This document shows, piece by piece, positions 982 to 51,856 of a stretch of DNA of 64,000 bases. This stretch comes from Chitinophagaceae bacterium (GTDB taxonomy: Bacteria; Bacteroidota; Bacteroidia; Chitinophagales; Chitinophagaceae). The notes under the pieces are model-generated. The model worked only from the letters and a program-made list of their open reading frames with translations. It did not search any database and was not told the DNA's origin. The stretch spans positions 23,119 through 87,118 of the forward strand of contig JBPCKN010000012.1 in assembly GCA_051004255.1 (NCBI GenBank). The letters run 5' to 3'. Made by a program: the position numbers and the translations under genes. The first letter of the stretch is position 1. Each line of letters opens with the position of its first letter.

Positions 982-1040
982 GTTCAAGAGTGCGACGCAA
1001 CGAAGATGCCATGAAAAACTAAAGCTGACATCAAAAAAAA
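982..1040 (+). repeat. Bipartite intergenic element, copy A (core-first; ends 2 nt before the ftsL ATG)
   Basis: GTTCAAGAGTGCGACGCAACGAAGATGCC...AAAGCTGACATCAAAAAAAA. Confidence 0.85.
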
Positions 1041-1042
1041 TT

Positions 1043-1396
1043 ATGGAAGAACAACAAAATATAAAAAAAGAAAAAACAATTAATCCTTTAACGGGCTTGG
1101 GCAGCAGTTTGTTTTATTACAAATGGATAACAAAAAATATTGGGTTTTTTTTATTTATTGCTTCGCTTGCTGTTGTGTACATCGCGAACGGACATAAGGC
1201 TGACCAAATGCTGCGCGACATTGATGCAACACAAAAAAATGTGAAGGAATTGCAGTACGAATATAAAACGCTGAAGAGCGAAATGATTTTTAAAACGCGC
1301 GAAGCAGAAGTGGTGGAAGCCGCGCAGCCACTGGGTTTGCAGCTGCCGACTGAACCGCCGATGCGAATAAAAAAAGAAACAACAAAAACAAAATAA
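1043..1396 (+). CDS. FtsL-like small bitopic division protein
   Basis: 117-aa ORF between rsmH and ftsI with one TM helix (IGFFLFIASLAVVYIA) followed by a charged helical region. The call is positional. Confidence 0.6.
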   Translation: MEEQQNIKKEKTINPLTGLGSSLFYYKWITKNIGFFLFIASLAVVYIANGHKADQMLRDIDATQKNVKELQYEYKTLKSEMIFKTREAEVVEAAQPLGLQLPTEPPMRIKKETTKTK

Positions 1397-1460
1397 TGTA
1401 CAATTGCCGCATGAAAAAAGTTGCTAACCAAATTATTTTTCCAAAAAAAACATTCGCCAA

Positions 1461-3593
1461 TTGGAAGTAAAACGCGACATATTATGGCGAGTGTATCTCT
1501 GTTTTATTGCAGTGGTAATTGTATGCGCAGTAATTATTTCTAAAGCATTTATTATTCAGCAAGTGCAGGGAAAATATTGGCGCAGCATGAGTGATAGCCT
1601 GCATCAAAAAATTGAAGAAATTGATGCAGACCGCGGAACAATTTACAGCGAAGACGGGCAAATGCTTAGCACCAGTATTCCGCAATTTGATATTTATATT
1701 GATTTTGGTGCAGATGGCCTGCGTGAAAATAACGGCAAAATTTTTAAGCAAAATCTTGATTCATTGAGTTATGATTTATCACATCTTTTTAAAGACAGAA
1801 GCGAAGGCGAATACAAAAAATTATTGGAAGATGGATTCACATCGCAGGAGCGATATTTTTTATTGAAGAAAAAAATTTCGTTTGAAGATTATCAGCAATT
1901 AAAACAATTTCCGCTTGTGCGTTTGGGAAAAAATAAAAGTGGATTTATTGCTGAAACAAAAAATATTCGTTTAAATCCTTATCAATTACTTGCATACAGA
2001 ACAATTGGATTAGACAGAGCAAATTCGCAAAAAGTAGGGTTGGAAAAAACTTACGATAGTGTGCTGAAAGGCATAACTGGTCAGCGTTTGGTAAGATATA
2101 TTTCCGGCGGAGTTGCAGTTCCGGTTGATGATAGCAACTTGCAAATTGAACCTGAAAATGGAAAAGATATTGTTACAACGCTCGATATGCATATTCAGGA
2201 AATAACAGAAAATGCATTAATGAAAATGATGATTTCAAACCAGGCAGAACACGGCTGCGCAATTGTTATGGAAGTAAAAACCGGAAAAATAAAAGCAATT
2301 GCAAATCTTGGCAAAAGAACCGATGGAAATTATTGGGAAGATTTTAATTATGCCTTAACGCCAACAGAGCCTGGTTCAACTTTTAAATTGGTTACTTTAT
2401 TGAGCGCTTTAGAAGATAAAAAAGTTTTATTGTCAAGTGCTGTAAATCTTGGCGGCGGAACCTGGCAAATAAATGGTGAAACGGTTTACGATGATGAAAA
2501 GCATGGCGCTGAGGAATCAAATTCAACTGTAAAACGAGCTTTCGAATTAAGCTCAAATGTTGGTTTGGCAAAAGTTGCGTACAGCAGTTACTACAATAAT
2601 CCTTCGCAATTTATTCATCATATTCAAAATTTAAATTTAGATACACTCACAGGAATTGATTTAGCCGGCGAGCAACATCCAATTATTTACAATCCGGGAA
2701 ATAAATATTGGAGCGCTACAACGCTGCCCTGGATGGCGTTTGGGTACAATCTTGCCATCACACCTTTACACACGGCGATGTTATATAACGCAGTTGCAAA
2801 CAGAGGAAAAATGATGAAACCTTTTTTGGTAAAAGATGAGCAGCAAGATGGGAAAATTATAAGAACATTTCAGCCAACCGTTTTGCACGATTCTATTTGC
2901 AGCAAAAAAACCTTAAGCGAATTGCTCGAATGTTTGAAAGGAGTTTGTGCTGACAGCGGCGCAACAGCTTACACTTTGTTCAAAGGTTCGCCTTATCAAG
3001 TTGCCGGAAAAACAGGCACAGCGCTGGTTGCAGAAGGTTCGCAAGGTTATGCTGCTCATATTTATCAATCAACTTTCGCCGGGTTTTTTCCTGCTGATAA
3101 TCCGCAATTTACTTGCGTTGTTGTTATAAAAAATAAACCAAATGCTACAAAGTTCTATGGTGCGGTTGTGGCTGGTCCTGTATTCAAAGAAATTGCTGAC
3201 AGATTATACACGGTGTACATCAAACAAGGCACCCAAACAATGTATGCAAATATCGAAAAAACAGATAGTTCATTTTATAATTATGATGGAATGAGCAATG
3301 AAATGAAGCTCGTACTTCATAAACTGGGCGTAGGTTTTAGCGATTCATCAAATAAAAATAATTCATGGATGAAATTATATAGGCAAACCTCAAATCCGGT
3401 TGCAAGCAGTGTACAAATGAGCAATAGACAAATGCCGCAATTAGCAGGATTAGGTTTGAAAGATGCAATTTTTATTTGTGAAAATTTAGGATTAAAAGTG
3501 AGTGCAAAAGGAATTGGAAAGGTAACAGCGCAATCAATTTCAGCAGGTTCATTATTCTCAAAAGGTCAGTCAATAAATATACAATTAAACTAA
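1461..3593 (+). CDS. ftsI: Penicillin-binding protein 3 / FtsI transpeptidase
   Basis: N-terminal TM anchor and transpeptidase motifs STFK, SSN and KTGT. The C-terminal tail is PASTA-like. A TTG start is assumed. Confidence 0.9.
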   Translation: MEVKRDILWRVYLCFIAVVIVCAVIISKAFIIQQVQGKYWRSMSDSLHQKIEEIDADRGTIYSEDGQMLSTSIPQFDIYIDFGADGLRENNGKIFKQNLDSLSYDLSHLFKDRSEGEYKKLLEDGFTSQERYFLLKKKISFEDYQQLKQFPLVRLGKNKSGFIAETKNIRLNPYQLLAYRTIGLDRANSQKVGLEKTYDSVLKGITGQRLVRYISGGVAVPVDDSNLQIEPENGKDIVTTLDMHIQEITENALMKMMISNQAEHGCAIVMEVKTGKIKAIANLGKRTDGNYWEDFNYALTPTEPGSTFKLVTLLSALEDKKVLLSSAVNLGGGTWQINGETVYDDEKHGAEESNSTVKRAFELSSNVGLAKVAYSSYYNNPSQFIHHIQNLNLDTLTGIDLAGEQHPIIYNPGNKYWSATTLPWMAFGYNLAITPLHTAMLYNAVANRGKMMKPFLVKDEQQDGKIIRTFQPTVLHDSICSKKTLSELLECLKGVCADSGATAYTLFKGSPYQVAGKTGTALVAEGSQGYAAHIYQSTFAGFFPADNPQFTCVVVIKNKPNATKFYGAVVAGPVFKEIADRLYTVYIKQGTQTMYANIEKTDSSFYNYDGMSNEMKLVLHKLGVGFSDSSNKNNSWMKLYRQTSNPVASSVQMSNRQMPQLAGLGLKDAIFICENLGLKVSAKGIGKVTAQSISAGSLFSKGQSINIQLN

Positions 3594-3600
3594 AAATAGG

Positions 3601-5064: not shown

Positions 5065-5125
5065 TTAATTGTTAATGACTAATTGTTAATCGAGAAACCA
5101 TCAATTACCGACAATCAACTAAAAT

Positions 5126-6433: not shown

Positions 6434-6475
6434 ATGTATGTACATTGATTTTAAATGAATTATTAGAATGAAAAC

Positions 6476-6532
6476 TATTTTGTTACCGGCATTTGAACAA
6501 GAATTAAGCATCGTTGTGTCACTCACTTGTAC
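6476..6532 (-). repeat. Bipartite intergenic element, copy B (reverse; degenerate core; 42 nt after the mraY stop)
   Basis: GCATCGTTGTGTCACTCACTTGTAC at 6508-6532, preceded by TTGTTACCGGCATTT. Confidence 0.6.
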
Positions 6533-6561
6533 GCCTTGTTCTTTATTCAACAGTCTACGTC

Positions 6562-6630: not shown

Positions 6631-6659
6631 TAACGAGAATTGTTGAATTATTTGTTGCA

Positions 6660-6718
6660 GTACAAGAGTGCGACGCAAGGAACGATGAGAAGGGGAAAAA
6701 AGTTGGGTTCATAAAAAA
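6660..6718 (+). repeat. Bipartite intergenic element, copy C (core-first; ends 10 nt before the murD TTG)
   Basis: GTACAAGAGTGCGACGCAAGGAACGATG...AAAAGTTGGGTTCATAAAAAA. Confidence 0.9.
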
Positions 6719-6728
6719 CATTAATTAA

Positions 6729-8069
6729 TTGAGTGAAAAAATAATCATATTAGGTGCGGCTGAAAGTGGCGTGGGCGCTGCATTGCTGGCAAAACAAAAA
6801 GGTTATAAAGTTTTTGTGAGCGATGAAGGAATGATTAAAGAAAATTACAAAAAAGAGCTCATTGAAAATGAAATTGAGTTTGAAGAAGGCAAACATTCAA
6901 TCGAAAAAATTTTGAATGCAGATGAAATTGTAAAGAGTCCGGGCATTCCTGAAAAGAATGAAATGGTAAAAAAAATTCGTGCGAAAAATATTCCCGTAAT
7001 CAGTGAGATCGAGCTCGCATACAAGTTTAAAGGCGACAGCAAAATTGTTGCAATCACCGGCAGCAACGGAAAAAGCACAACAACCGCAATGATTTATCAC
7101 ATCTGCAAAACTGCCGGACTCAATTGCGCGCTGGTTGGAAATATTGGTTACTCTTTTGCAAAACAAATAGCAGAAAATCCAAAACCGTTGTACGTGGCAG
7201 AGATTAGTTCTTTTCAATTAGATGATATAAAAAATTTTCGAGCAAATATTTCGGTGCTTTTGAACATTACAGAAGATCATTTAGACAGGTACGAATATAA
7301 TTTTGAAAACTATATCAATAGTAAATTCAGTATCATTCAAAACTCAACCAGTGAAGATTATTTTATTTACTGCGACGACGATGAAGTGATAAAAAAAAAA
7401 TTAGAAGCAATGAGACTTATTACTAACCCAATCCCATTTTCAATGAAACACGAACTAACTAACGGCGCCTGGATAAAAAACAACCAAATGATGCTGCGTG
7501 TGCAGGAAGAACGAATGAGCATGAGCATTTATGATTTTGCACTGAAAGGAAAACACAATCAATACAATACAATGGCAGCAAGCATTGCAGCCACAACGCT
7601 TGGAATAAAAAAAGAAAAAATCCGCGAAGCGGTTACAAATTTTGAAAGCCTTGAACATCGTATGGAGCATGTTGCAACCGTTCGTGGAATTGAATTTATA
7701 AACGACAGTAAAGCAACAAATGTAAACAGCACCTGGTATGCCTTGGAAAGTATGAATAAACCAACCATTTTAATTTTAGGCGGCCTCGATAAAGGCAACG
7801 ATTATAATTTAATTAAAGATTTAGTAAAGGAAAAAGTAAAAGCAATTGTGTGTATGGGAATTGATAACAAAAAAATTTATGAGGCATTTAAAGATGTTGT
7901 TGAAAATATTGTTGACACGCAGAGCGCAAAAGATGCAGTAGAAAAAAGTTTTCAATTATCAGCAAAAGGTGATGTGGTTTTGTTAAGTCCGGCTTGCGCA
8001 AGTTTTGATTTGTTTAAAAATTATGAAGACCGAGGCCGGCAGTTTAAGCAGGCGGTGAAAGATTTATAA
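6729..8069 (+). CDS. murD: UDP-MurNAc-L-alanine:D-glutamate ligase
   Basis: N-terminal Rossmann-like GAAESGVGAA and P-loop GSNGKSTT. A TTG start is assumed. dcw position fits. Confidence 0.9.
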   Translation: MSEKIIILGAAESGVGAALLAKQKGYKVFVSDEGMIKENYKKELIENEIEFEEGKHSIEKILNADEIVKSPGIPEKNEMVKKIRAKNIPVISEIELAYKFKGDSKIVAITGSNGKSTTTAMIYHICKTAGLNCALVGNIGYSFAKQIAENPKPLYVAEISSFQLDDIKNFRANISVLLNITEDHLDRYEYNFENYINSKFSIIQNSTSEDYFIYCDDDEVIKKKLEAMRLITNPIPFSMKHELTNGAWIKNNQMMLRVQEERMSMSIYDFALKGKHNQYNTMAASIAATTLGIKKEKIREAVTNFESLEHRMEHVATVRGIEFINDSKATNVNSTWYALESMNKPTILILGGLDKGNDYNLIKDLVKEKVKAIVCMGIDNKKIYEAFKDVVENIVDTQSAKDAVEKSFQLSAKGDVVLLSPACASFDLFKNYEDRGRQFKQAVKDL

Positions 8070-8140
8070 ATGTAAGATGTACAATGTACGATGTTAGATG
8101 TGTTTTCTAAATCGTACATCATACATCGTAAATCGTACAT
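8070..8140. repeat. TACGATG-word spacer with a hairpin (murD-ftsW)
   Basis: ATGTACGAT (8084-8092) pairs with ATCGTACAT (8111-8119, or the second copy at 8132-8140). The 5' part ATGTAAGATGTAC..GTACGATGTT recurs at 22762-22794. Confidence 0.6.
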
Positions 8141-8143
8141 AAA

Positions 8144-9442
8144 ATGAACGACACTTTATTTTCTCAAATTCCTTCTCCGCAAAAGGTTGGCGGCCATTTG
8201 CTTAACAAAACAAAAGGTGACCAAATTATTTGGGGAATTGTGATTTTGCTTGCGCTTGCATCTTTGCTTTTAGTGTACAGCGCCACAGGTTCTTTGGCAA
8301 TTAAAATGTACAATGGCAACACACAAATTTATCTTTTCAAACAATTATCTTTTATCGTTCTTGGCATAATATTAATTTATTTTTTGCACAGAATAAATTA
8401 CACGATTTATTCAAGAATTTCACTTATACTTTTTATCATTTCAATTCCCTTATTAATCTATACTTTATTTTTTGGCACAGAAATAAATGAAGGCAGTCGA
8501 TGGATAAAACTACCTGTTATTAACCTAACCTTTCAAACCAGCGATTTGGCAAAACTTGCATTGTTTATGTATTTATCACGACAGTTAAGTCGCAAGCAAA
8601 ATGTAATTAAGGATTTCAAAAAAGGTTTTCTTCCTTTAATCATTCCGATAATAATTACGTGTGTTTTAATAATGCCCGCAAACCTCTCAAATGCTTTATT
8701 GACAGGCGCTACAGCGTTAATGCTGTTGTTTATTGGTCGCGTAAGTTTTAAACACATTTTATTTATAATTACCGTTGCATTAATTCCGATTGCAATTCTC
8801 GTAATGGTCGCAATAACAACTTATAAAACCAGCGATGCGGAAACTTCAAACACATCGAAAGTTTCTTCTTCATTAAATTCATTTGGGAGATTCGGCACTT
8901 GGGTTAGTCGCGTTCAGGATTATATTTATTCAAAAGATGAAACTTCATCTTATCAAATTCAGCAGGCAAAAATTGCCATTGCAAATGGTGGAATGTTCTT
9001 TGGATTAGGTCCCGGTAACAGCCGTCAAAGAAATTATTTACCCCAGGCTTACAACGATTTTATTTACGCAATTATCATCGAAGAATATGGTTTGCTCGGC
9101 GGCGCATTTATTGCTTTTATTTACCTGCTTTTTTTGTTTCGCTGCATTCGAATTTTTCGAAGATGTCCTTATGCATTCGGCGCGTTTCTCGCCCTGGGAT
9201 TGAGTTTCACACTCGTAATCCAAGCCCTCGCGAACATGGCGGTTAACGTAAACATCGTTCCTGTAACAGGTGTAACGCTGCCGTTAATCAGCATGGGCGG
9301 CAGTTCATTTTTATTCACCTGCGCAGCCATCGGCATCGTGCTAAGCGTTGCAAGAAACGTAGAACAAATGGAAGGAAAAACTTTACAGGTTCAAACAATA
9401 AATAATGAAGAAAATAATATTATGAACCCAACTGAAAAATAA
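8144..9442 (+). CDS. ftsW: SEDS-family peptidoglycan polymerase FtsW
   Basis: About 10 TM segments, a conserved PVTGVTLPLISMGGSS region, and the dcw position. The last ~8 codons lie inside repeat copy D. Confidence 0.9.
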   Translation: MNDTLFSQIPSPQKVGGHLLNKTKGDQIIWGIVILLALASLLLVYSATGSLAIKMYNGNTQIYLFKQLSFIVLGIILIYFLHRINYTIYSRISLILFIISIPLLIYTLFFGTEINEGSRWIKLPVINLTFQTSDLAKLALFMYLSRQLSRKQNVIKDFKKGFLPLIIPIIITCVLIMPANLSNALLTGATALMLLFIGRVSFKHILFIITVALIPIAILVMVAITTYKTSDAETSNTSKVSSSLNSFGRFGTWVSRVQDYIYSKDETSSYQIQQAKIAIANGGMFFGLGPGNSRQRNYLPQAYNDFIYAIIIEEYGLLGGAFIAFIYLLFLFRCIRIFRRCPYAFGAFLALGLSFTLVIQALANMAVNVNIVPVTGVTLPLISMGGSSFLFTCAAIGIVLSVARNVEQMEGKTLQVQTINNEENNIMNPTEK

Positions 9443-9474
9443 GAATGATGCATCGTTGCGTCGCACTCTTGTGC
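9419..9474 (-). repeat. Bipartite intergenic element, copy D (reverse; overlaps the ftsW stop)
   Basis: ATTATGAACCCAACT...GCATCGTTGCGTCGCACTCTTGTGC. The block TATGAACCCAACT is identical to the reverse complement of copy C. Confidence 0.9.
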
Positions 9475-9493
9475 ATTCAGTTCATTATTCAAC

Positions 9494-10633
9494 ATGAATG
9501 AAAAGGAAACCATAGAAACTAAAAAAGTTTCCGCTCCAAAAAGTGGATTGAAAATAATTATCGCCGGCGGCGGAACAGGCGGACATATTTTTCCTGCCAT
9601 TGCTATTGCAAATACGTTGCGTTCGTTGCAACCTGACATTCAATTTTTATTTGTCGGAGCAAAAGGTAAAATGGAAATGGAACGCGTTCCGCAAGCCGGT
9701 TATGAAATAAAAGGTATTGACATTGCAGGTTACGACAGAAGTTCTTTGTTTAAAAATATTTTATTGCCCTATAAATTAATCAAAAGTTTTTTCCAGGTTC
9801 GTAAAATTGTAAACAGTTACAAACCAAACGCAGCAATAGGTGTAGGTGGCTACTCGAGTTTCCCGGTGTTGAGATATGCACAAAGCAAACGCATTCCAAC
9901 ATTCATTCACGAGAGTAATTCATTCGCCGGAAAAAGCAATATTTTATTGGGAAAAAAAGCAATAAAAATTTTTGTTGCAAGCGATGGAATGGAAAAATTC
10001 TTTCCCAAAGAAAAGATAATTATTAGCGGAAATCCGGTGCGAAAATCAATTGCAAATTCAACCATAATAAAAAGCGAGGCAATAAAATTTTTCAAATTAG
10101 ATGAAACAAAAAAAACAATTCTTATCGTCGGCGGCAGCCTAGGTGCAAAAAGTATTAACGATGTTATCTCATCACACATTGCAGAATTTGAGCACTTAAA
10201 TCTGCAACTCATTTGGCAAACAGGAAAAACAAATGCAGATAGTTATATTAAAACAGCAAAACCGTTTAGCAATGTTTGGGTAAACAATTTTATTACCGAA
10301 ATGGATAAAGCTTATGCAGCCGCAGACATAGTGGTATCAAGAGCTGGCGCAATGGCGGTAACAGAATTATGTGTTGCAAAAAAGCCTGTAATATTTGTGC
10401 CTTATCCGTTTGCAAGCGAAGACCATCAAACAAAAAATGCAATGTATTTGGTTGATAAAAGAGCAGCATTTATTGTAAAAGATAATGAAGTGCGGGGGAA
10501 ATTATTTCCAAGAATTACAAATCTTGTTTTTAATGATGCAAAGCAGGAAGAGCTACAAAAAAACATAGGCGAATTAGCAATAAAAAATGCGGATGAAACT
10601 ATTGCAAAAGAAATTTTGAAAGACATTCAATGA
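9494..10633 (+). CDS. murG: UDP-GlcNAc:lipid I N-acetylglucosaminyltransferase
   Basis: GGGTGGHIFPAIA motif and the dcw position. Confidence 0.9.
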   Translation: MNEKETIETKKVSAPKSGLKIIIAGGGTGGHIFPAIAIANTLRSLQPDIQFLFVGAKGKMEMERVPQAGYEIKGIDIAGYDRSSLFKNILLPYKLIKSFFQVRKIVNSYKPNAAIGVGGYSSFPVLRYAQSKRIPTFIHESNSFAGKSNILLGKKAIKIFVASDGMEKFFPKEKIIISGNPVRKSIANSTIIKSEAIKFFKLDETKKTILIVGGSLGAKSINDVISSHIAEFEHLNLQLIWQTGKTNADSYIKTAKPFSNVWVNNFITEMDKAYAAADIVVSRAGAMAVTELCVAKKPVIFVPYPFASEDHQTKNAMYLVDKRAAFIVKDNEVRGKLFPRITNLVFNDAKQEELQKNIGELAIKNADETIAKEILKDIQ

Positions 10634-12982: not shown

Positions 12983-13222
12983 AGAAACATTCATGAATGA
13001 GTAACGATTAATGAGTAATGATGAATTAAAATGAATAATAAGCGATTTGCAATTAACGATTAACTATTAACAAATAACTATTAACAAAAAACTCAACACA
13101 TTAATTCAAAATAAAAATCAAATATTATGAAAACAATTTTGATGATAATTAATAAAGCGAAAGATATTTTAAATGATGATGTTAGAATTCCGAAAGCTAA
13201 AAAGATGATTAAAGAACAAACT

Positions 13223-13281
13223 GTACAAGAGTGCGACGCAAGGAACGATGCTATGAAAAACAAAAGCTGGTCTCATAAAAA
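13223..13281 (+). repeat. Bipartite intergenic element, copy E (core-first; 56 nt before the ftsA ATG)
   Basis: GTACAAGAGTGCGACGCAAGGAACGATGCTATGAAAAACAAAAGCTGGTCTCATAAAAA. Confidence 0.9.
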
Positions 13282-13337
13282 TTCTTATAAAATAATTAGC
13301 GAATAAAATTTTTGAACAAACAACTAAAATAAATATT

Positions 13338-16816: not shown

Positions 16817-18469
16817 TCATTTTTTTCCATACACTTCAAGCATTTTTTTAAGATCATCGAGTGTATTTATTTCCTCAGGTTTTTTATCTTTTCTCCACCG
16901 GTTAATGCGCGGAAACCTAAGCGCCACACCGCTTTTATGACGATGGCTTGCAGCAATGCCTTCAAATGCAATTTCGAAAACAAGCTCCGGTTTAACTGTT
17001 CTAACAGGTCCAAATTTTTCGATAGAATTTCTTCTTACAAAATTATCAACCTGTACAAATTCTTTATCTGTTAAACCGGAATATGCTTTTGTAAAAATTA
17101 CAAAATTATTGCCATCTTTTACTGCAAATGTATAATCAGTATAAAGATTGCTTCTTCTTCCGCTGCCTTTTTGCGCATATACCATCACTGCATCAATTGT
17201 GAACGGATCAATTTTCCATTTCCACCAATCGCCCGTTTTTCTTCCAACCTGGTAAATAGATGATTTTTTTTTCAACATCATTCCTTCGGCAAAAAAATTT
17301 CTCGATTGCTTTCTTAATTCGCCTAATTCTTCCCACGAATTATATTCGATAATTGGAGAGATTTGTAAAATGAAACTGCTGCACTTTTCAACAATTTCCT
17401 CTAATTTTTTTCTGCGCCATTCAAGTTGCTTTTCTCTCCAGTCTTCATAATTAAATTCCAATAAATCATAAGCAAAAAAAATAATTGGCGCTTCCTGCAA
17501 ATTTTTCTTGGTAATATTTTTTCTTCCAATTCTTGTTTGCAACAATGCAAACGAAAGTGGCTTTCCTTCAGCGCCAGGAATAATTTCTCCGTCAAGTACA
17601 ACACCATCCGGCAAGCAATGTTTTAATATTTGATATTCAGGAAATTTATCTGTCATTAATTCTTCACCGCGGCTCCAAACAAACAATTCATTATTGCGTT
17701 TGATAATTTGCCCGCGAATGCCATCCCATTTCCATTCTGCTTGCCACTCTTGCGGCAAACCCAGTGTTTGCGGCTCTTCCTGCAGTGCATACGCTAAATA
17801 AAATGGATAAGGTTTTGAATGATCAACCGCCCCATGTTCACTCAATAATCCTTCAAAAGCTACGGTTGACGGATCCCAGTTTCCGCTGATGCGATGCGCA
17901 ATTTTTGAAGGCTCGAGCGATGCAATTTTTGCAAGCGCATTCACCATTAATTTTTGTGAAACACCGATTCTAAAATTTCCGCTAAATAATTTGTTGAATA
18001 CAAATCTTTCTTCGCGCGTCATCTGCATCCAGCAATCAATTACAAATTGTTTTTTTATTTGTTCAGATTGTTTCTCTATTTCAATAAATTTTTCAAGATA
18101 AAAATATAATGATTTTGACGTTGCTGAAATAACATTAGTGTCGGGTAATAGTAAAGCAATATTTTCCGAAAGGTCGCCAACGGTGTGATAACATTCTGCA
18201 AACAACCATCCGGGAATTTGCGCAAGTTCGATGCACCATTCCGCTAAAAGTGTTCCGCTGATTGCGCGGCGCGGTCTTCTACCCGAAAACAATGCAATCA
18301 CCCAAACTTTATCTTTATTATTTGCAGTTAAAAAATACTGGCTTAACGCAGCGAGTTTATCTAAAGTTTTTGTGGATGTTCCAAGTGTGTTTACTAATTC
18401 TGCGAAAAGAGCAAGACCCTCTTTTTTTTCTTCCTGCAATAAAATAATATTTTTTTCTAATTCACTCAT
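16817..18469 (-). CDS. ATP-dependent DNA ligase (ligase-associated DNA-damage-response type)
   Basis: Adenylation motif I as EWKWDGIRGQ, 550 aa. Translationally coupled (4-nt overlap) to the upstream MBL exonuclease gene. Confidence 0.85.
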   Translation of the reverse strand: MSELEKNIILLQEEKKEGLALFAELVNTLGTSTKTLDKLAALSQYFLTANNKDKVWVIALFSGRRPRRAISGTLLAEWCIELAQIPGWLFAECYHTVGDLSENIALLLPDTNVISATSKSLYFYLEKFIEIEKQSEQIKKQFVIDCWMQMTREERFVFNKLFSGNFRIGVSQKLMVNALAKIASLEPSKIAHRISGNWDPSTVAFEGLLSEHGAVDHSKPYPFYLAYALQEEPQTLGLPQEWQAEWKWDGIRGQIIKRNNELFVWSRGEELMTDKFPEYQILKHCLPDGVVLDGEIIPGAEGKPLSFALLQTRIGRKNITKKNLQEAPIIFFAYDLLEFNYEDWREKQLEWRRKKLEEIVEKCSSFILQISPIIEYNSWEELGELRKQSRNFFAEGMMLKKKSSIYQVGRKTGDWWKWKIDPFTIDAVMVYAQKGSGRRSNLYTDYTFAVKDGNNFVIFTKAYSGLTDKEFVQVDNFVRRNSIEKFGPVRTVKPELVFEIAFEGIAASHRHKSGVALRFPRINRWRKDKKPEEINTLDDLKKMLEVYGKK

Positions 18470-21876: not shown

Positions 21877-22755
21877 TTATAAAAAGATTTTTATATACAA
21901 CCAAACAAAAGGTGTGGCAAAAATGAGTGAATCAAAACGATCGAGAAAGCCGCCGTGACCGGGCATTATTTTTCCGCTGTCTTTAACGCCGGCCATCCGT
22001 TTCATCTTGCTTTCAAATAAATCGCCAACAGTTCCCATAATTGCAGCGATGGATGAAATAACAATAAGTGAAACTATATCAGTCATATCAAAAACAAAAT
22101 AGCCAACTAATGAAACTGTTGCTATTGCCAGCAAAGCGCCGCCGGCCGTGCCTTCCCATGTTTTTTTCGGTGATATTTTTGATAATGAATTTTTGCCGAT
22201 AATTGAGCCGACAATATATGCCATTGTATCGTTTATCCAAATTGATGCAATTAAAACAATCGGCGTTACCCAGCCTAAATCAATAAATAAATTTGTGTTG
22301 CTAAAAAACATTCCATCGCTTCGCAATCTTATCATCAAACCCCAACTCAGTGAAATATAAATTAAACCCAGCGCTGAATAACCTATATTTTTTATGCTGA
22401 AACTTCTGTAAAAAATTATTTCGGAGAGAACAATTACTATAAACGCAGCGAGCATCAGCCATAAACCAATTTGCTGCAAATTATAATTGCCGGTGTTAAA
22501 AGCTGCATTTGTATTCCATAACATAAAACCCCAGCCCAGCAGCATTATATCGAGTTTATGAAAAATATTTATGGAGTTATATCGCGCATCAATTAAACCA
22601 ACTAATTTTTGATATTCGATCCAGCAGCCAAAATATATAACAGAAAATAATAAAAAAAATGTGAATTGATTAATGAGCAAACCGGCAAGCATAATTATAG
22701 CAAAAGCAATTGCAGTAAGTGTGCGTGTTTTAAAAATTTGCAAATTAAAAGACAT
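21877..22755 (-). CDS. cdsA: Phosphatidate cytidylyltransferase
   Basis: Polytopic membrane protein with the C-terminal signature SKMKRMAGVKDSGKIMPGHGGFLDRFDS. Confidence 0.88.
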   Translation of the reverse strand: MSFNLQIFKTRTLTAIAFAIIMLAGLLINQFTFFLLFSVIYFGCWIEYQKLVGLIDARYNSINIFHKLDIMLLGWGFMLWNTNAAFNTGNYNLQQIGLWLMLAAFIVIVLSEIIFYRSFSIKNIGYSALGLIYISLSWGLMIRLRSDGMFFSNTNLFIDLGWVTPIVLIASIWINDTMAYIVGSIIGKNSLSKISPKKTWEGTAGGALLAIATVSLVGYFVFDMTDIVSLIVISSIAAIMGTVGDLFESKMKRMAGVKDSGKIMPGHGGFLDRFDSLIFATPFVWLYIKIFL

Positions 22756-22761
22756 TTTTTA

Positions 22762-22794
22762 ATGTAAGATTTACGATGTACGAAGTACGATGTT
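22762..22794. repeat. Second copy of the ATGTAAGAT..GTACGATGTT word repeat (next to the cdsA start)
   Basis: ATGTAAGATTTACGATGTACGAAGTACGATGTT compared with 8070-8095 ATGTAAGATGTACAATGTACGATGTT. Confidence 0.6.
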
Positions 22795-22910
22795 TAACGT
22801 TTAATATTTGATGACGCGAAGTAAGAAGTTTTTAATGAAAGAAAAAAAATGATAGTTAATTGAAGAATATATCTGATAAATTTAACGGATTGCTGCATAG
22901 CGATTTGAAC

Positions 22911-22968
22911 GTACAAGCGAGCGTGGCAACGATGTTTAATAGTAATTCATAAGCTTAGTACAAAAAAA
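22911..22968 (+). repeat. Bipartite intergenic element, copy F (degenerate core; follows the stop of the minus-strand 68-aa ORF)
   Basis: GTACAAGCGAGCGTGGCAACGATGTTTAAT...ATAAGCTTAGTACAAAAAAA. Confidence 0.6.
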
Positions 22969-23003
22969 TTCTTACTTATTTTTAACAACGAATAATCTTA
23001 TTT

Positions 23004-23210
23004 CTAATTCAGCAAAGCCTTATCCAGCAAGTGTTTGGCGATATCTTTTAAATGTATGGGAACATATAATTCTATTTCGCCGAAATTGATATAGCTGCTG
23101 TCTTGTCTGTTAAATAATATTACGTGTATGTTATTTTCTTCCAGCATTCCTTTTATAATGTTTGCCTGCGCATAATTGCGCGTTGTGTATAATAAAAACC
23201 AGTTTTTCAT
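23004..23210 (-). CDS. Small DUF2007-like protein
   Basis: 68-aa ORF whose start shares 1 nt with the stop of the upstream CPBP gene. The family call is from a general resemblance only. Confidence 0.4.
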   Translation of the reverse strand: MKNWFLLYTTRNYAQANIIKGMLEENNIHVILFNRQDSSYINFGEIELYVPIHLKDIAKHLLDKALLN

Positions 23211-33913: not shown

Positions 33914-34628
33914 TTTTTCAAACAATATACAGCAGGCGGATGGTATAGAAATAACTTACTATACTGACCCGCTTTGTTGCTGGAGCTGGGCATTTGAGCC
34001 GCAATGGCGAAAACTACAATTTGAATTTAGCGGAAAAATAAGCTGGCATTATGTTATGGGCGGTTTGTTGCCAAGTTGGAAAAATTATAATGATCCTATA
34101 AATAATGTAAGTCGCCCAATACAAATGGGACCGGTTTGGATGCATGCCAGCCAAGTGTCAGGCATACCAATGCATCAAAGAATTTGGATAGAAGATCCGC
34201 CTGCTTCTTCTTATCCTGCCTGCATCGCAGTTAAATGTGCAGAGCTTCAATCAACAGAAACAGGTGAAAAATATTTACGACTTCTTCGCGAAGCAATTAT
34301 GATTAACGGCATAAATATTTCTAAACAAACTGAATTAATTAAGATTGCTGAAACACTTACACAGAAAGGTTTTACTGAGTTTACTCTTATAAAATTTAAG
34401 GAAGATTTAAAAACAGATAAAGGTCTTGAAGCATTTCGCAAAGATCTGCAAGAGGTGCAATACCGTAATATCAATCGCTTTCCTACATTAATAATTAAAG
34501 CAAATCAACAACCGCCTATTCTTATTACTGGTTATCGGCCCTATTCAATTTTGCTCGATGCAATAAAACAAGTAGCGCCGCAGTTACAAAAAACCCAGCA
34601 GGCAATTAACGAGGAAGAAATTTTTTGA
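33894..34628 (+). CDS. DsbA-family thioredoxin-fold protein
   Basis: DPLCCWSW active-site-like region. The ATG at 33894 is preferred and overlaps the end of the catalase gene. The stop codon lies inside repeat copy G. Confidence 0.65.
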   Translation: MPEVKDNFSNNIQQADGIEITYYTDPLCCWSWAFEPQWRKLQFEFSGKISWHYVMGGLLPSWKNYNDPINNVSRPIQMGPVWMHASQVSGIPMHQRIWIEDPPASSYPACIAVKCAELQSTETGEKYLRLLREAIMINGINISKQTELIKIAETLTQKGFTEFTLIKFKEDLKTDKGLEAFRKDLQEVQYRNINRFPTLIIKANQQPPILITGYRPYSILLDAIKQVAPQLQKTQQAINEEEIF

Positions 34629-34677
34629 GCCGGGCTTTAGAATAAATATTTAGCATCGTTGCGTCGCACTCTTGTGC
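34621..34677 (-). repeat. Bipartite intergenic element, copy G (reverse; overlaps the DsbA-like stop)
   Basis: TTTTTTGAGCCGGGCTTTAG...GCATCGTTGCGTCGCACTCTTGTGC. Confidence 0.9.
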
Positions 34678-34755
34678 GATTTGTTTTTTACTGAACTATT
34701 GTATAAAAATAGCTTTATAATTTATTTGCCATTAATTGATGCCAAATGTAATGCA

Positions 34756-34816
34756 GCACAAGAGTGCGACGCAACAGCTGATGCCATCTGCACTTTAGCT
34801 CATCCCCCAAAAAAAA
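34756..34816 (+). repeat. Bipartite intergenic element, copy H (core-first; 72 nt before the uvrD ATG)
   Basis: GCACAAGAGTGCGACGCAACAGCTGATGCC...TTTAGCTCATCCCCCAAAAAAAA. Confidence 0.85.
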
Positions 34817-34888
34817 TTCTTCACAAATTATTAATAACAGATTTCCCGCTTCGCTCGAAAAAACAAATGCAAAATGTAACTTGCACTT

Positions 34889-39032: not shown

Positions 39033-39064
39033 TTTGATTATTGTAAAAAAAAACGACAAGCATC

Positions 39065-39139
39065 GTCATTGCGAGGAGGAACGACGAAGCAATCTGCCTC
39101 AAGAAAATAATCAGATTGCTTCGCTGCGCTCGCAATGAC
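39065..39139. repeat. Complete hairpin of the GTCATTGCGAGG...CTCGCAATGAC type
   Basis: Arm 1 is at 39065-39096 and arm 2 (CAGATTGCTTCGCTGCGCTCGCAATGAC) at 39112-39139, with a 15-nt loop. Confidence 0.85.
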
Positions 39140-39238
39140 GTTTATTATGCTTGCAATGACGAAAAGAGTTGCGCACAACTTCCTAAAAAATTTCAACAAA
39201 AAAAATTTCAAACTTATTTGCTGAATAAAGTTTTGAAC

Positions 39239-39296
39239 GTACAAGTGTGCGACGCAACGATGCTCAATAGAATTACTAATGTTTGTTTCAAAAAAA
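39239..39296 (+). repeat. Bipartite intergenic element, copy I (core-first; 74 nt before the cysH ATG)
   Basis: GTACAAGTGTGCGACGCAACGATGCTCAAT...GTTTGTTTCAAAAAAA. Confidence 0.85.
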
Positions 39297-39370
39297 CCCA
39301 ACCAACAATTAACGATTAACAAATAACTTTTGAAAAAATTGTTGATTAATTTGCGAACTTATTTTTCACC

Positions 39371-40033: not shown

Positions 40034-40954
40034 ATGCGAATTTTAATTACTGGCGGCGCAGGATATATCGGCACAGAACTCGTGAACAATCTTGCTTCAA
40101 TGCTAAATGTTGAAAGCATAATTATATACGATAATTTAAGTCGCGGTAATTATAATTTGTTTTTAGGAAAGTCAATCGCATCGCCGAAAATAAAATTTAT
40201 TCATGGCGAAATTCTGGATTCGCGCAGGCTGCGGCAGGTTCTAAAAAATGTAAATGTTGTTTATCATCTTGCTGCAAAAGTTTTAACGCCGTTTGCAAAT
40301 TTAGACGGTCATATTTTTGAGCAAACCAATCATTGGGGAACTGCAGAATTGGTTTATGCAATTGAAGAAAATCCTGTTCAGAAATTTATTTTCGCCAGCA
40401 GCGCGGCGGTTTACGGCAACACAAAAAATTTTGCAACCGAAGAAACAATTCCGCAGCCCGACAGTTTTTATTCCATTTCCAAACATCGCGCAGAAGCGCA
40501 TGTGCAGCGGCTTTTCAGCAAAATGAACACCATTATTTTGCGGCTCGGCAACGTGTATGGTTACAGCAAAAGCATGCGTTTCGATGCGGTCATCAATCGT
40601 TTCATGTTCGATGCGCATTACACCGGTCGCATTACAATTAACGGCTCGGGGCAGCAGCATCGCTCGTTCATTCACATTGACAAATTAACTTATGTTTTAT
40701 CGCAGTTGTTAAGCACCGAAATTGCCAGCGGCATTTACAATGTGGTTGACAAAAATTTAAGCATCTTAGACATTGCAGAAGTGCTCAAAAAAATTTATCC
40801 CAATATTGAATCATTTTTTATCAATCAAAATTACACGGGTCACAATTTGCAGGTTGAGCGAAAATCGAAACTAACCAAATTCCTTTCTTTGCCTGAAACA
40901 GATTTAGAGCAGGAATTAAATGCGTTTAAAGAACAGTTTTCGTTTCATTTTTAG
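40034..40954 (+). CDS. NAD-dependent epimerase/dehydratase (SDR)
   Basis: GGAGYIG Rossmann motif and a YxxxK-like YSISK. Confidence 0.8.
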   Translation: MRILITGGAGYIGTELVNNLASMLNVESIIIYDNLSRGNYNLFLGKSIASPKIKFIHGEILDSRRLRQVLKNVNVVYHLAAKVLTPFANLDGHIFEQTNHWGTAELVYAIEENPVQKFIFASSAAVYGNTKNFATEETIPQPDSFYSISKHRAEAHVQRLFSKMNTIILRLGNVYGYSKSMRFDAVINRFMFDAHYTGRITINGSGQQHRSFIHIDKLTYVLSQLLSTEIASGIYNVVDKNLSILDIAEVLKKIYPNIESFFINQNYTGHNLQVERKSKLTKFLSLPETDLEQELNAFKEQFSFHF

Positions 40955-40957
40955 AAG

Positions 40958-41018
40958 AATTATTATGGGACGAGCTTTTGTACTTCGTGGCATCGCCTGT
41001 TGCGTCGCACACTTGTGC
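40958..41018 (-). repeat. Bipartite intergenic element, copy J (reverse; starts 3 nt after the epimerase stop)
   Basis: AATTATTATGGGACGAGCTTTTG...GGCATCGCCTGTTGCGTCGCACACTTGTGC. Confidence 0.85.
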
Positions 41019-41084
41019 GGTGGGAAGTTTGGGCGGCTACCTAAAAAGGCAATGAATCATCTTCTTGTTCAACAACTGTCATAC

Positions 41085-47263: not shown

Positions 47264-47312
47264 AAATTTATGTGGAATTAGTGCAACAAATTCTAACTAA
47301 ATAAAATATTTT

Positions 47313-47335
47313 AAAACCACCTTTCGGGTGGTTTT
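47313..47335. terminator. Bidirectional hairpin terminator between manC (+) and the DUF1328 gene (-)
   Basis: AAAACCACC-TTTCG-GGTGGTTTT: a perfect 9-bp stem flanked by A/T runs on both strands. Confidence 0.7.
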
Positions 47336-47369
47336 AAAGTAACAATTAAAATTAAAAATGAAAACAATT

Positions 47370-47531
47370 TTAAGGAGTACCACGTCCACGAATAAGCGAT
47401 AATAAAAACAAAACAATGAAAATAAAGAACAGAACTTTTGCTATTCCCGCAGCGCTTTCTGAAATTCCTCCAAAGCCGAATATCGCCGCTATAATAGCAA
47501 CAACAAGAAAGATAATTGTCCAGCGTAACAT
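47370..47531 (-). CDS. DUF1328/UPF0391 small membrane protein (53 aa, below the ORF-track cutoff)
   Basis: Hand translation gives [53 protein letters not shown], the characteristic family pattern. Confidence 0.7.
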
Positions 47532-47671
47532 GGGCTTAAGTTTTAAAGGTGAATAAACTTATTTATCAAAAAAGGTCATAAAACGTGCCAATAAATGTAT
47601 AAAAAAATTATGAGTTATTTTTATTTTTAATTTAAAAAATTATTGATTACTGTTTCAACTTAAACATAAAC

Positions 47672-48751: not shown

Positions 48752-48811
48752 ATTTTTTTACATTCTCTGTTATTGAAAATTTTTTTTATTATTTTTTTCT
48801 ATTTGAAAAAT

Positions 48812-49465: not shown

Positions 49466-49572
49466 AAATAAAATTAGTTTATAATAATTGTAACTTAATA
49501 TTTATAACGTGAATGTAATAAATTAATGCATTGTTTAAAATTTTAAAAGCAATTGTTGAAAAAAGTTATACA

Positions 49573-49631
49573 GTACAAGAGTGCGACGCAACGATGTTTA
49601 ATAATAGTACGAAAGTTAGGCTAAAAAAAAA
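49573..49631 (+). repeat. Bipartite intergenic element, copy K (A-run ends 4 nt from the stop of minus-strand ald)
   Basis: GTACAAGAGTGCGACGCAACGATGTTTAAT...GAAAGTTAGGCTAAAAAAAAA. Confidence 0.9.
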
Positions 49632-49635
49632 TCAT

Positions 49636-50853
49636 TTATCTTCTGCTTGCAATCAATAAATTTAAATCGGTAAATTTTAAATCGAATCTTTGACTGATAT
49701 AAAAATTGGTGAGATAACCTTTGTACAAATAAATGCCATTTCGCAAATTAAAATTATGCCAAAGCATTTCTTCAAATCCGCCTTCATCGCCGGTATCGAG
49801 CAGCAAAGGCATTAAAACATTACTGATCGCATGGCTTGCAGTGCGCGCAAAACCGCTGGCTATATTTGGCACACAATAATGGATAACTCCATGTTTTATA
49901 TATGTAGGATTTTCATGCGTTGTAATTTCGCTGGTTTCAAAACAGCCGCCGCGATCAATGCTTACATCAATAATTACGCTTCCCTGGCGCATTGCCATTA
50001 CCATATCTTCTGTTACAACAATTGGTGTGCGGCCGTTTTCGCTGCTTAATGCGCCAACAGCAACTTCGCAGGTTTTTAATTGTTTGGCAAGAATTTTTGG
50101 CTCTAAAACACTCGTCCACACACGAACACCTAAATTATTTTGTAATCGTTTTAAACGATAAACATTGTTATCAAACACTTTTACTGAAGCGCCCAATGCC
50201 AATGCAGTTCTGGTCGCAAATTCGCCCACAACGCCCGCGCCAATTATAATAACTTTTGTTGGCGGAATGCCGCTGATGCCGCCTAATAAAACGCCTTTAC
50301 CATTATCCGGGCTGCCCAAATATTTGCCTGCAATAAGCATGGCGGCGCTGCCGGCAATTTCGCTCATGCTTCGCACAATTGGGTAAGTGCCACTATCATC
50401 TTTTAAATTTTCAAAACTTAAAGCAGTGATTTGCTTATCCATCATTTTTTCAATCAATTCCTGTTTTAATAAAGAAATATGAATGGGAGAAATGATGGTT
50501 TGATTTAATTGCAAATGCGATAAATCTTCATCTACAACCGGCGCGCTTTTTATTAATATCGGCGCCTTATAAACTGCTGCTTTATCAGCAACAATTTTAG
50601 CGCCTGCTTCGCTATAATGTTGATCAGAATATTTACTGCCTTCGCCTGCTTTGGTTTCGATCATTACTTCATGACCATTATTAATTAAAACGCCAACAGC
50701 TTCCGGTGTTAATGCAATGCGGTTTTCCTGAAAAGCAGTTTCCTTCGGAATTCCAATGTGCAATTTTGCTTCTCTTGGCTTAATGTCTAAAGTTTCTTCT
50801 AACGCTTCGTAACTGATAGAAGAACTAACAATAGGTTTTGAAGATGTTGACAT
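49636..50853 (-). CDS. ald: Alanine dehydrogenase / PNT-alpha family NAD-binding enzyme
   Basis: IGIPKE...E.RIALTP N-terminal pattern and the dinucleotide fold IIGAGVVG. Confidence 0.7.
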   Translation of the reverse strand: MSTSSKPIVSSSISYEALEETLDIKPREAKLHIGIPKETAFQENRIALTPEAVGVLINNGHEVMIETKAGEGSKYSDQHYSEAGAKIVADKAAVYKAPILIKSAPVVDEDLSHLQLNQTIISPIHISLLKQELIEKMMDKQITALSFENLKDDSGTYPIVRSMSEIAGSAAMLIAGKYLGSPDNGKGVLLGGISGIPPTKVIIIGAGVVGEFATRTALALGASVKVFDNNVYRLKRLQNNLGVRVWTSVLEPKILAKQLKTCEVAVGALSSENGRTPIVVTEDMVMAMRQGSVIIDVSIDRGGCFETSEITTHENPTYIKHGVIHYCVPNIASGFARTASHAISNVLMPLLLDTGDEGGFEEMLWHNFNLRNGIYLYKGYLTNFYISQRFDLKFTDLNLLIASRR

Positions 50854-50983
50854 AATTTTAAGTTTGAAAAAGTTGCAAACTTACGAAGTTCAAAGTTGCA
50901 TAGATTAATTGAACTTGAAAAACTTTTGAAAATAGAAAATTAAAATTTAAAATAAAGTATTGATTTTTTCAAACAATCAAACT

Positions 50984-51397
50984 TCAACTTTCGGCAAAAA
51001 TGCGTCTTGAATTTTCATCAATTATTTCAATATAAATATCTAATGTTTTTTCGGGTAATAATTGCGATGCATTTTCGGGCCATTCTATCAAACAAAAATT
51101 TCCGCTTGTTAAGCAATCTTCCACGCCGGCGCGAATGGCTTCTTCTTCATTTTTTATTCTGTACCAATCCATATGATAAATTGTTCCGGCAATTTCACTT
51201 TTATATTCATTAATTATTGCAAATGTTGGGCTGGTTACAACATCGTTTAAATTTAATTCCTCGCACAAAGCGCGGATAAAAGTTGTTTTGCCAGCGCCCA
51301 TCTGCGCATGAAAAGCCCATATTCTTTTTTGTTGATTTAGCTGCCAGAATTCTAAGGCTATTTTATTTATTTCATTAAGTGTAAACGTTATATTCAT
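50984..51397 (-). CDS. tsaE: tRNA t6A37 biosynthesis ATPase TsaE
   Basis: 137 aa with P-loop GAGKTT and the HMDWYR motif. Confidence 0.85.
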   Translation of the reverse strand: MNITFTLNEINKIALEFWQLNQQKRIWAFHAQMGAGKTTFIRALCEELNLNDVVTSPTFAIINEYKSEIAGTIYHMDWYRIKNEEEAIRAGVEDCLTSGNFCLIEWPENASQLLPEKTLDIYIEIIDENSRRIFAES

Positions 51398-51651
51398 TTT
51401 GCAAACGTAGTAAATGAAATTGCCGATTTTTAAATGCCAATAAAATCAGGTTATTAAAAAATTACTTATTGCCCGTTGGAAAGCAATTTTGCATTGCAGC
51501 AGACTTGCAATAAATGTTGGTGCAGAATTACGCACGCTTTTTAGAAATTATGCACGCAAAGATATTTCATTTAAAAACCTGCTGCCGAAGGCGCTTTTTT
51601 AGTTGATGCAAAAAAGTAGACGGTGAAATGAATGAAATAAAAATTGTTGCG

Positions 51652-51678
51652 AAAAGGTGGCAACATAAAATTAAAATT
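51652..51678 (+). repeat. Solo copy of the A-run-proximal module of the bipartite element
   Basis: AAAAGGTGGCAACATAAAATTAAAATT compared with copy L TAAAGTTGGTAACATAAAAATTTAAATT. No GC core is adjacent. Confidence 0.5.
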
Positions 51679-51797
51679 GTCTTTTAAAACATTTTTTGTG
51701 ACATCAATAATAGATATGGTTATAAAAAACCCACAAAATGGTTTTATTGAATTTTACTTTTAAACTTTGATTTTCACTGCTGAACAGCGAACAGAAC

Positions 51798-51856
51798 GTA
51801 CAAGAGTGCGACGCAAGAAAAATTTAATTAATAATCTAAAGTTGGTAACATAAAAA
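51798..51856 (+). repeat. Bipartite intergenic element, copy L (core-first; 48 nt before the GMC oxidoreductase ATG)
   Basis: GTACAAGAGTGCGACGCAAGAAAAATT...CTAAAGTTGGTAACATAAAAA. Confidence 0.85.

Follow-up and report, generated by a model that had tools for sequence, protein, structure and literature searches.

Short repeats dispersed between genes are well studied in proteobacteria and firmicutes, and hardly in Bacteroidota. In Neisseria, DNA uptake sequences (DUS) often lie as inverted pairs near gene ends, and the RNA hairpins of Correia elements are processed by RNase III. Repetitive extragenic palindromic (REP) elements occur in alternating orientations within bacterial interspersed mosaic elements (BIMEs), to which several proteins bind (PMC2817692). 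Here we describe a repeat of Chitinophagaceae, starting from a stretch of 64,000 nucleotides in contig JBPCKN010000012.1 of a Chitinophagaceae bacterium (hereafter, the window), in which twelve copies of an intergenic element had been predicted from the sequence alone. These copies belong to a dispersed, non-coding, polar intergenic repeat family that is specific to Chitinophagaceae and their phages. The family is gained and lost, differs in abundance from lineage to lineage, has a constrained asymmetric core with a small dyad that exists in two types, and shows a BIME-like alternating mosaic organisation. Its nearest analogues are the enterobacterial REP and BIME.

The twelve copies were recovered by several routes. 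Allowing up to three mismatches, the 24-mer of the core has seven matches in the window against 0.00 expected, and the 19-mer GTRCAAGWGTGCGACGCAA has eleven against 0.05 expected; repeat finding clusters the same places into families of 70-85 nt. With 209 copies as input, of which 197 came from other genomes and 12 from the window, an nhmmer profile returned exactly twelve copies in the window, the weakest with E=2.8e-9 and the next match with E=3.1. The predicted positions and strands are thus borne out by the 19-mer matches and the profile (Table 1). All copies are intergenic, at a density of 12 per 64 kb, in DNA of 35.6% GC where housekeeping genes come after a dcw cluster that extends from rsmH to ftsZ. 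Neither a tRNA nor an Rfam family at gathering score was found in the window, and a permissive Rfam search (E up to 10) was without relevant match, in agreement with the earlier view that the element belongs to no named Rfam family. The same holds for the statement that the window lacks a transposase, as none was found by Pfam among 20 of its larger open reading frames (ORFs) outside the dcw cluster, which show ordinary domains or none.

The anatomy of the unit was derived from an alignment of the window copies, from 209 copies anchored on the core and from the profile. In order, the unit consists of a 5' box (T)TGCTGAATAAAGAAC located ~20 nt upstream of the core, the core itself, a spacer of variable length, the motif GCYGGG, two bases and CAWAAAA. 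The type-1 core, GTACAAGWGTGCGACGCAAS, is 20 nt long and nearly invariant, while the spacer has either a AATAGTAG-like or a GATGCCATGAAAAAC-like flavour; the GATGCCATGAAAAAC and GCTTAATAGTAG flavours show no association with a start or stop context. Conservation declines gradually on both sides, giving a total of ~85-90 nt. The core, variable spacer, AAAGYTGG..CAT box and A-run of the original description are all visible in the window alignment and in the family profile; the length of ~60 nt given there is too short, owing to the conserved 5' box. The sole internal symmetry is the 9-nt dyad TGCG-A-CGCA within the asymmetric 20-nt core.

The unit is non-coding and has no conserved frame, as had been proposed: the spacer carries indels and the variable positions of the core are non-synonymous in every frame. 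A small ORF within the unit can be ruled out, since the ATG is missing in some copies, frames differ and one contains an in-frame stop. On the other hand, the head holds TGA and TAA in two frames and the reverse complement of the tail reads TTTTTTTGA, so that an ORF entering the unit from either end halts soon. Real genes do end within a tail, among them ftsW and a thioredoxin-like gene of the window (Table 1) and the terL gene of a phage (locus L205). With stop codons at both ends, the unit is tolerated even inside operons, including the late operons of phages.

Some copies show additional sequence. In one subfamily (L051, L054, L068, L077, L084, L096, L100 and L205) a further ~25 bases are conserved on the upstream side of the core (TTCAATCTaCGCTTCGaTAAAAGCTCAwTCATAATCCAACC), and in the L205 phage it is from this stretch that the gene upstream takes its final codons and its TAA. 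The unit is interrupted by small palindromes rich in GC (CCCGATAGCTATCGGG; CCCC...GGGG hairpins), within or right after the core, at L196 8663-8763, in the minus-strand copy of L064 and at L068 1806-1880. Their position inside units suggests a second, REP-like repeat family that targets the same spacers.

An exact scan for the 17-mer ACAAGWGTGCGACGCAA, with one genome per species, matched at least 118 genome stretches, and among the matches listed all are Chitinophagaceae/Chitinophagales or loosely labelled Bacteroidota metagenome-assembled genomes. Carrier genera among the matches listed include Segetibacter, Ferruginibacter, Cnuella, Flavihumibacter, Foetidibacter, Flavisolibacter, Limnovirga, Puia, Ilyomonas, Lacibacter, Pinibacter, Paracnuella and Flaviaesturariibacter, with the GC content of the listed stretches ranging from 31 to 57%. 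The genome of the window is itself absent from the matches listed. Some other genomes hold 4-6 copies per 8 kb. In the literature, full-text searches with the core sequence matched only unrelated primers, and no description of such a repeat was found for Chitinophagaceae or Bacteroidetes. A BLAST search with one copy against GenBank phages and PLSDB plasmids gave no match, which with a query of 89 nt is a weak test.

The evidence for gain and loss comes from orthologous loci. Eighty metagenomic dcw clusters were fetched, with MurD 70-79% identical to that of the window, and most of them have zero copies over as much as 21 kb. The arrangement of the window recurs in its two nearest relatives among them (L121 and L122), with mraY followed by two copies head-to-head, then murD, ftsW, a copy on the opposite strand and murG. 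Another dcw clade carries copies at murD|ftsW, ftsL|ftsI and ftsQ|ftsA and after ftsZ. In one member of this latter clade (L192), within which nucleotide identity is ~88%, the murD TAA is followed directly by the ftsW ATG, an empty junction that eight of its relatives fill with a mosaic of 230-400 nt. Besides a copy, the mosaic comprises several hairpin modules and in some cases the decayed remains of a second copy. Presence and absence at orthologous sites therefore vary both at these dcw junctions and at the terS|terL junction of phages described below.

Although the units come and go, their core is under constraint. In eight orthologous murD|ftsW copies, 19 of the 20 core columns are invariant, as are parts of the 5' box (GAATAA.GAA) and ATAGTA, and in the last 150 nt of murD the invariant codon positions number 44/50, 47/50 and 13/50 for first, second and third positions, respectively. 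At orthologous sites, then, the core is as conserved as codon positions 1 and 2. Most loci were chosen by an exact core, which inflates core conservation there; the analyses of orthologous sites and of dcw loci are free of that bias, and among 27 dcw-locus copies not selected by core pattern 14 have a perfect core. Outside the core, copies of the same genome are only ~50% identical, indicating that they are old and that something keeps their cores intact. Neighbouring copies are no more alike than non-neighbours, and the idea that they are recent duplicates was rejected on this ground.

The core is also present in 63 IMG/VR stretches. One of these viral contigs contains a genuine phage module, with large terminase, portal, head/protease and tail sheath genes matched to PHROGs at E values of 1e-100 to 1e-226, and copies are found immediately 5' of the terL ATG, across the stop codon of terL, behind the portal gene and farther downstream. 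Related phages differ at the junction before terL, which is empty in L206 (...ACT TAA AAATAA ATG...), while in L205, L253 and L263 the TAA is separated from the A-rich leader by an extra ~59 nt (TCCAACC, core, spacer, GGCTC). Because both orientations occur within an essential operon, that of dcw, and within a late operon of a phage, the unit cannot be a strong terminator in either direction. The repeat may also serve as a lineage marker that ties phages to Chitinophagaceae hosts.

The placement of the unit is polar. It had been claimed that the A-run end strictly faces the nearest boundary of a coding sequence, and with ORF-based gene calls this is the case for 12/12 copies of the window, six before starts and six after stops; the copy at 9410-9496 occupies the entire ftsW-murG spacer, so that the rule is little informative there. 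Across the family the rule becomes a strong bias. Using crude ORF-based gene calls and the 171 copies with two called neighbours, the boundary on the A-run side is the nearer one in 118 versus 53 cases, ~5 standard deviations from parity by a normal approximation. The A-run side faces a stop in 102 copies and a start in 69; 40 copies lie in convergent and 21 in divergent spacers, and those in co-directional spacers divide into 48 sense and 62 antisense. As 60% of the copies face a stop and not a start, the earlier suggestion that the units donate A-rich leaders to translation starts cannot be general. The distance from the core to the facing stop has a sharp mode at 30-50 nt, which corresponds to the tail end (43/112 copies), the stop thus lying within ~10 nt of the tail; no comparable mode exists on the head side. 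In 12-28 of the 112 stop-side copies, the terminator hairpin of the converging gene adjoins the A-run, which serves as its T-run.

Copies next to each other are inverted 128 times and direct 32 times. When two neighbours stand tail-to-tail, at least one gene is always enclosed and the gap is at least 870 nt, bar two exceptions; close pairs, on the other hand, are head-to-head (11/12) and common inside a single spacer, with hairpin modules interspersed between and beside the copies. The genes between such bracketing copies are ordinary (coaD, pyrE, trp genes, atpD, sucD, guaB, hutU and others) and occupy either strand, and 6 of ~30 enclosed gene sets are divergent or convergent pairs. The original rule is thus a strong bias and not a law; a more general one is that tails aim at genes and neighbours are inverted.

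A second type of core emerged from a copy that the original prediction had taken for degenerate. The core at 6508-6532, GTACAAGTGAGTGACACAAC, is identical at the orthologous site in L121 and L122, and its 17-mer has 22 exact occurrences in 18 of the loci fetched, which represent several genera and include two viral stretches. Positions 10, 12 and 16 distinguish it from type 1, and the double change from C12:G16 to T12:A16 keeps the dyad (GCG-A-CGC to GTG-A-CAC); two further copies show the same double change with T10 retained. At least 8 of ~23 type-2 copies stand head-to-head with a type-1 copy, a share far above that of type 1. Ten of 26 doublets have two good cores, 15 have three or more mismatches in exactly one core, and none has two poor cores. 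GTACAAGTGAGTGACACAAC is therefore a discrete core variant, rarer than type 1, and not the product of random decay, while the copy at 22911, also predicted to be degenerate, truly is so.

Our preferred reading, which is tentative and falls a little short of probable, is that of a dispersed, REP/BIME-like module with a core that a putative trans-acting factor reads. The core, with its TGCG-A-CGCA dyad, would be the recognition site of this conserved factor, most likely a sequence-specific DNA-binding protein that may be either the enzyme by which the units were spread or a protein of the host that has come to use them. Recognition would keep the core from changing as the remainder of every copy drifts. 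The pattern of tails aimed at genes and inverted neighbours could arise if units settle beside A/T tracts at stops and starts, with selection against direct neighbour pairs as a second process contributing to polarity; a core duplex of at least 20 bp between inverted copies on one transcript would be a by-product. The earlier proposal of a binding site for a dimeric protein is compatible with purifying selection on the core and with the type-2 double change that keeps the dyad. The proposal of a non-autonomous mobile element is, in a weak sense, the best supported of those originally made, given that presence and absence differ, but the copies are old and neither terminal inverted repeats (TIRs) nor target-site duplications (TSDs) were seen.

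Several observations weigh against the REP/BIME-like reading. The unit is not a palindrome and fails the defining feature of REPs: it is no imperfect palindrome of 20-40 nt able to form a stem-loop, and in place of a GTAG or CGTC tag its core begins with GTAC (GYAC) with no palindrome after it. No TIR was seen on the unit, whose head (TGCTGAATA) and tail (CAWAAAA) are unrelated and whose conservation is highest internally, and no gene resembling a transposase or a REP-associated tyrosine transposase (RAYT, of IS200/IS605-like type) was found in the window or in the 30 gene sets between bracketing copies. No TSD is evident when L205, L253 and L263 are compared with L206, at an A-rich junction with flanks that are only ~80% identical. 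Near-identical copies are absent within a genome, which speaks against recent transposition, and a search for filled and empty sites across all loci produced one clean close pair only, so that mobility is deduced from presence and absence alone. Between L205 and L253 the core differs at 3/20 positions, about as much as the flanks, and the signs of purifying selection in the core could also be produced by biased gene conversion.

The first alternative is that the units act as RNA half-sites, a role anticipated by the original suggestion of intercistronic hairpin halves. Correia/NEMIS elements are reported to be RNase III targets, and inverted copies on one transcript in Chitinophagaceae might likewise pair through their cores into a duplex of at least 20 bp for processing or stability, for example as an RNase III target, with the invariance of the core serving to let any two copies pair. 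Physically this is possible. The doublets of the window fold into long hairpins with their cores paired (-68.1 kcal/mol, z -3.3, and -67.6 kcal/mol, z -6.9), copies 7 and 8 would form a perfect 20-bp core helix if co-transcribed, and any copy forms a duplex of ~-59 kcal/mol with any reverse-complemented copy. The 128:32 excess of inverted neighbours, the close head-to-head pairs in co-directional spacers and the copies inside the polycistronic dcw cluster and a phage late operon all fit such a role, as does the lack of structure in single units. In fact, single copies on both strands fold no better than shuffles, with the exception of 9411-9496 on the plus strand (z -3.7, 0/200 shuffles as good). 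RNAalifold finds only an invariant GUAC-AAGA-GUGC mini-hairpin in the 209 copies, on both strands, and only the 3-bp dyad (-0.13 kcal/mol) in the window copies, and mutual information with average product correction over the 209 copies contains local subfamily signal only and no Watson-Crick covarying pairs.

Nevertheless, true partners pair no better than random ones (-59.07 versus -59.11 kcal/mol), the polymorphic core positions of doublets are not concordant, and a small excess of co-variation in bracketing pairs is confounded by genome composition. One core has three or more mismatches in 15/26 doublets, and combinations of type 1 and type 2 leave the helix mismatched at its centre. For some pairs a common transcript is impossible, as 6 of ~30 bracketing pairs surround divergent or convergent genes, and 12-28/112 stop-side copies are situated past a terminator hairpin. 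Pairing would be just as good in tail-to-tail hairpins, and yet these are almost never seen, and many copies have no nearby partner. Taken as the reason for the constancy of the core, RNA half-sites appear unlikely.

It has also to be considered that the units are a selfish and mostly dead transposable element of the miniature inverted-repeat kind (MITE), or half of one, without host function, in which recent common origin or gene conversion keeps the core constant. Patchy abundance among lineages, clade-specific junctions and empty sites are in line with this possibility, as are the copies in phages, where the core drifts like the flanks, and the Logan assemblies that break beside a copy. The chromosomal core, however, is invariant at orthologous sites where 74% of third-codon positions vary, and same-genome flanks of ~50% identity mark copies as old while their cores are intact. 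Moreover, the exact core is common to genera that span 31-57% GC, no TIR or TSD was seen, and no transposase of an autonomous insertion sequence was seen near the copies, either in the window or in the bracketed gene sets. A dead MITE is accordingly rather unlikely.

A more specific form of core recognition, which we consider quite unlikely, would make the units genome punctuation that serves the host, with a dedicated protein or an RNA complex with a ~20-nt guide reading the core at the boundaries of gene blocks, in inverted pairs with tails inward. If true, the units would be polar boundary or insulator elements for transcription, supercoiling or looping, like convergent boundary sites, and would have been adopted by resident phages.

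A directional transcription signal, be it the promoter of an alternative sigma factor, the target of an RNA-guided activator or repressor, or a polar roadblock or insulator, is improbable. RNA-guided transcription does occur in Bacteroidota (PMC13472631), and the 20-nt invariant stretch has the size of a guide-RNA target; tails aim into gene blocks from both sides, and some A-runs adjoin a start codon in the manner of an untranslated region, ~37 nt from the core. But 60% of the copies aim at a stop and would fire antisense, copies in both orientations within the essential dcw and phage late operons cannot be strong terminators, and known dCas12f systems have at most ~7 targets per genome. A dCas12f-sigmaE system as reader of the core was ruled out on the latter ground, as its targets are that few and lie upstream of susCD. 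The consensus contains on neither strand the pair of elements of a Bacteroidota sigma-A promoter (-33 TTTG and -7 TAnnTTTG, at ~19-nt spacing); exact -7 boxes are not enriched within the unit, and their counts around copies are too low to be informative. The unit is not an intrinsic terminator either, since its A-run has no preceding hairpin.

An uptake or self-recognition sequence, similar to DUS, uptake signal sequences (USS) or Chi and kept from changing because a machine for uptake or repair is specific to it, is very improbable. What would suit it is that the motif is over-represented, constant throughout the family, found in both orientations, flanked by AT-rich DNA and also present in phages. 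However, the units are strictly intergenic, their constrained part (20 nt plus boxes) is far longer than known DUS, USS or Chi, their polarity towards gene ends is unexpected, and their absence from ~20-kb stretches of most related genomes is ill-suited to a family-wide machine. A self-contained structured cis-regulatory RNA or small RNA (sRNA) gene, which the intergenic, conserved copies often just 5' of starts might have suggested, is close to refuted by the lack of an Rfam match even at E up to 10, by folds that resemble shuffles bar one, by the absence of covariation and by the 48 sense and 62 antisense copies in co-directional spacers, unexpected for a cis-acting motif. The promoter, insulator and sRNA readings each fail at least one direct test, and the uptake-sequence reading fits poorly with the length and the intergenic restriction of the unit.

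Table 1. Copies of the repeat unit in the window (positions counted from the first letter of the window).
Copy	Position	Strand	Core	Context
1	961..1044	+	type 1, GTTCAAGAGTGCGACGCAAC	rsmH/ftsL spacer; A-run adjoins ftsL ATG at 1043
2	6466..6557	-	type 2, GTACAAGTGAGTGACACAAC	~33 nt past mraY stop; left half of head-to-head doublet with copy 3
3	6638..6727	+	type 1	immediately 5' of murD; right half of doublet with copy 2
4	9410..9496	-	type 1	tail over last ftsW codons and stop (9440-9442); head over murG ATG (9494)
5	13203..13288	+	type 1	~50 nt 5' of ftsA
6	22888..22977	+	truly degenerate, GTACAAGCGAGCGTGGCAAC	tail 27 nt from stop of minus-strand 68-aa ORF (23004-23210)
7	34612..34700	-	type 1	TGA of thioredoxin-like gene (34626-34628) within tail; left half of head-to-head doublet with copy 8
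8	34733..34821	+	type 1	5' of uvrD; right half of doublet with copy 7
9	39215..39298	+	type 1 (W=T)	5' of PAPS-reductase gene (cysH-like)
10	40950..41042	-	type 1 (W=T)	tail begins directly after TAG of epimerase gene (40952-40954)
11	49551..49639	+	exact consensus	A-run ends 3 nt from stop of minus-strand ald (49636-49638)
12	51773..51860	+	type 1	~45 nt 5' of first GMC oxidoreductase gene

Other repeats share the spacers of the window with the units. Just upstream of the rsmH-ftsL copy, a hairpin CCCTCTCC-TGGC-GGAGAGGG followed by AACGAGGGTGAGG occupies 925-960, and a similar motif precedes a copy in L010 (~190-235, full hairpin) and in L014 (~7040-7080, GAGGGTGAGG only). Between the aminotransferase gene and copy 9, at 39052-39150, a long nested palindrome (CGTCATTGCGAGG...GAAGCAATCTG...CAGATTGCTTC...CTCGCAATGACG) looks like a different intergenic repeat of the hairpin type. 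AT-rich tandem or low-complexity repeats (TTAACGATTAAC..., GTAAGATGTACGATGT...) are located at 13036-13103, 39299-39338, 8062-8144, 22754-22793 and 12990-13030, and similar heptamer-like runs stand beside copies elsewhere, e.g., in L004, L025, L065 and L092.

With respect to the genes, those for GMC oxidoreductases are tandem paralogues (51905-53584 and 53657-55390), ~70-80% identical over long stretches, of which only the first is preceded by a copy; in L070 a copy is likewise found 5' of a GMC oxidoreductase homologue. The window also encodes two ATP-dependent DNA ligases on the minus strand (16817-18469 and 26798-28942), one with ligase N/M/C domains and the other a LigD-type fusion with a primase-polymerase domain, the latter indicating repair of the non-homologous end joining type.

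The repeat has practical consequences for sequence data. Two Logan contigs (L119 and L120), the only public contigs that encode the PAPS reductase of the window, begin ~305 nt 5' of the gene, next to copy 9 (window ~39067). Short-read assemblies of Chitinophagaceae seem to break at the repeat, which in addition gives rise to ORFs that are spurious and may displace the C-terminus of a real gene.

Compared with REP and BIME of Enterobacteriaceae and Pseudomonas, the family is similarly high-copy, extragenic and non-coding, is tolerated in operons and prefers 3' ends and convergent spacers. In both systems two types pair with each other, Y and Z in BIMEs and type 1 and type 2 here, forming mosaics with short motifs. 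On the other hand, the present unit is 85-90 nt long instead of 20-40, is non-palindromic with only a 9-nt dyad, and is devoid of the GTAG or CGTC tag (PMC3733652). Whereas REPs are species-specific, one core is used family-wide and in phages here, and no RAYT was found. The likeness extends to the REPIN/RAYT system, in which a trans-acting enzyme recognises the repeat, as is presumed here by analogy (PMC3116915, PMC3337134): inverted doublets with a short spacer coexist with singlets, and persistence is apparently long and vertical. Unlike in REPINs, the two copies of a doublet resemble each other no more than copies drawn at random do, conservation is lacking in the middle segment, most copies are singlets against a gene end, and no RAYT was seen.

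Correia/NEMIS of Neisseria, ERIC/IRU of enterobacteria and RUP and BOX of pneumococcus resemble the unit in being small, intergenic, co-transcribed, polymorphic for presence and absence, and able to form long RNA hairpins. They are, however, single units with TIRs, in the case of Correia with duplication of a TA target, whereas the present unit has no TIR and is best conserved internally. The DUS and USS of Neisseria and Pasteurellaceae share with it a family-wide constant motif in both orientations, often in inverted pairs near gene ends, with an AT-rich extension, but their cores measure 9-12 nt and are common inside genes, while the units here are strictly intergenic, polar and missing from many related genomes. 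The Chitinophagaceae family shows an unusual mix of traits, namely a non-palindromic core kept over 31-57% GC with coding-like constraint, polarity, near-obligatory inversion, two core types and presence in phage operons, a combination that predicts a specific reader of the core.

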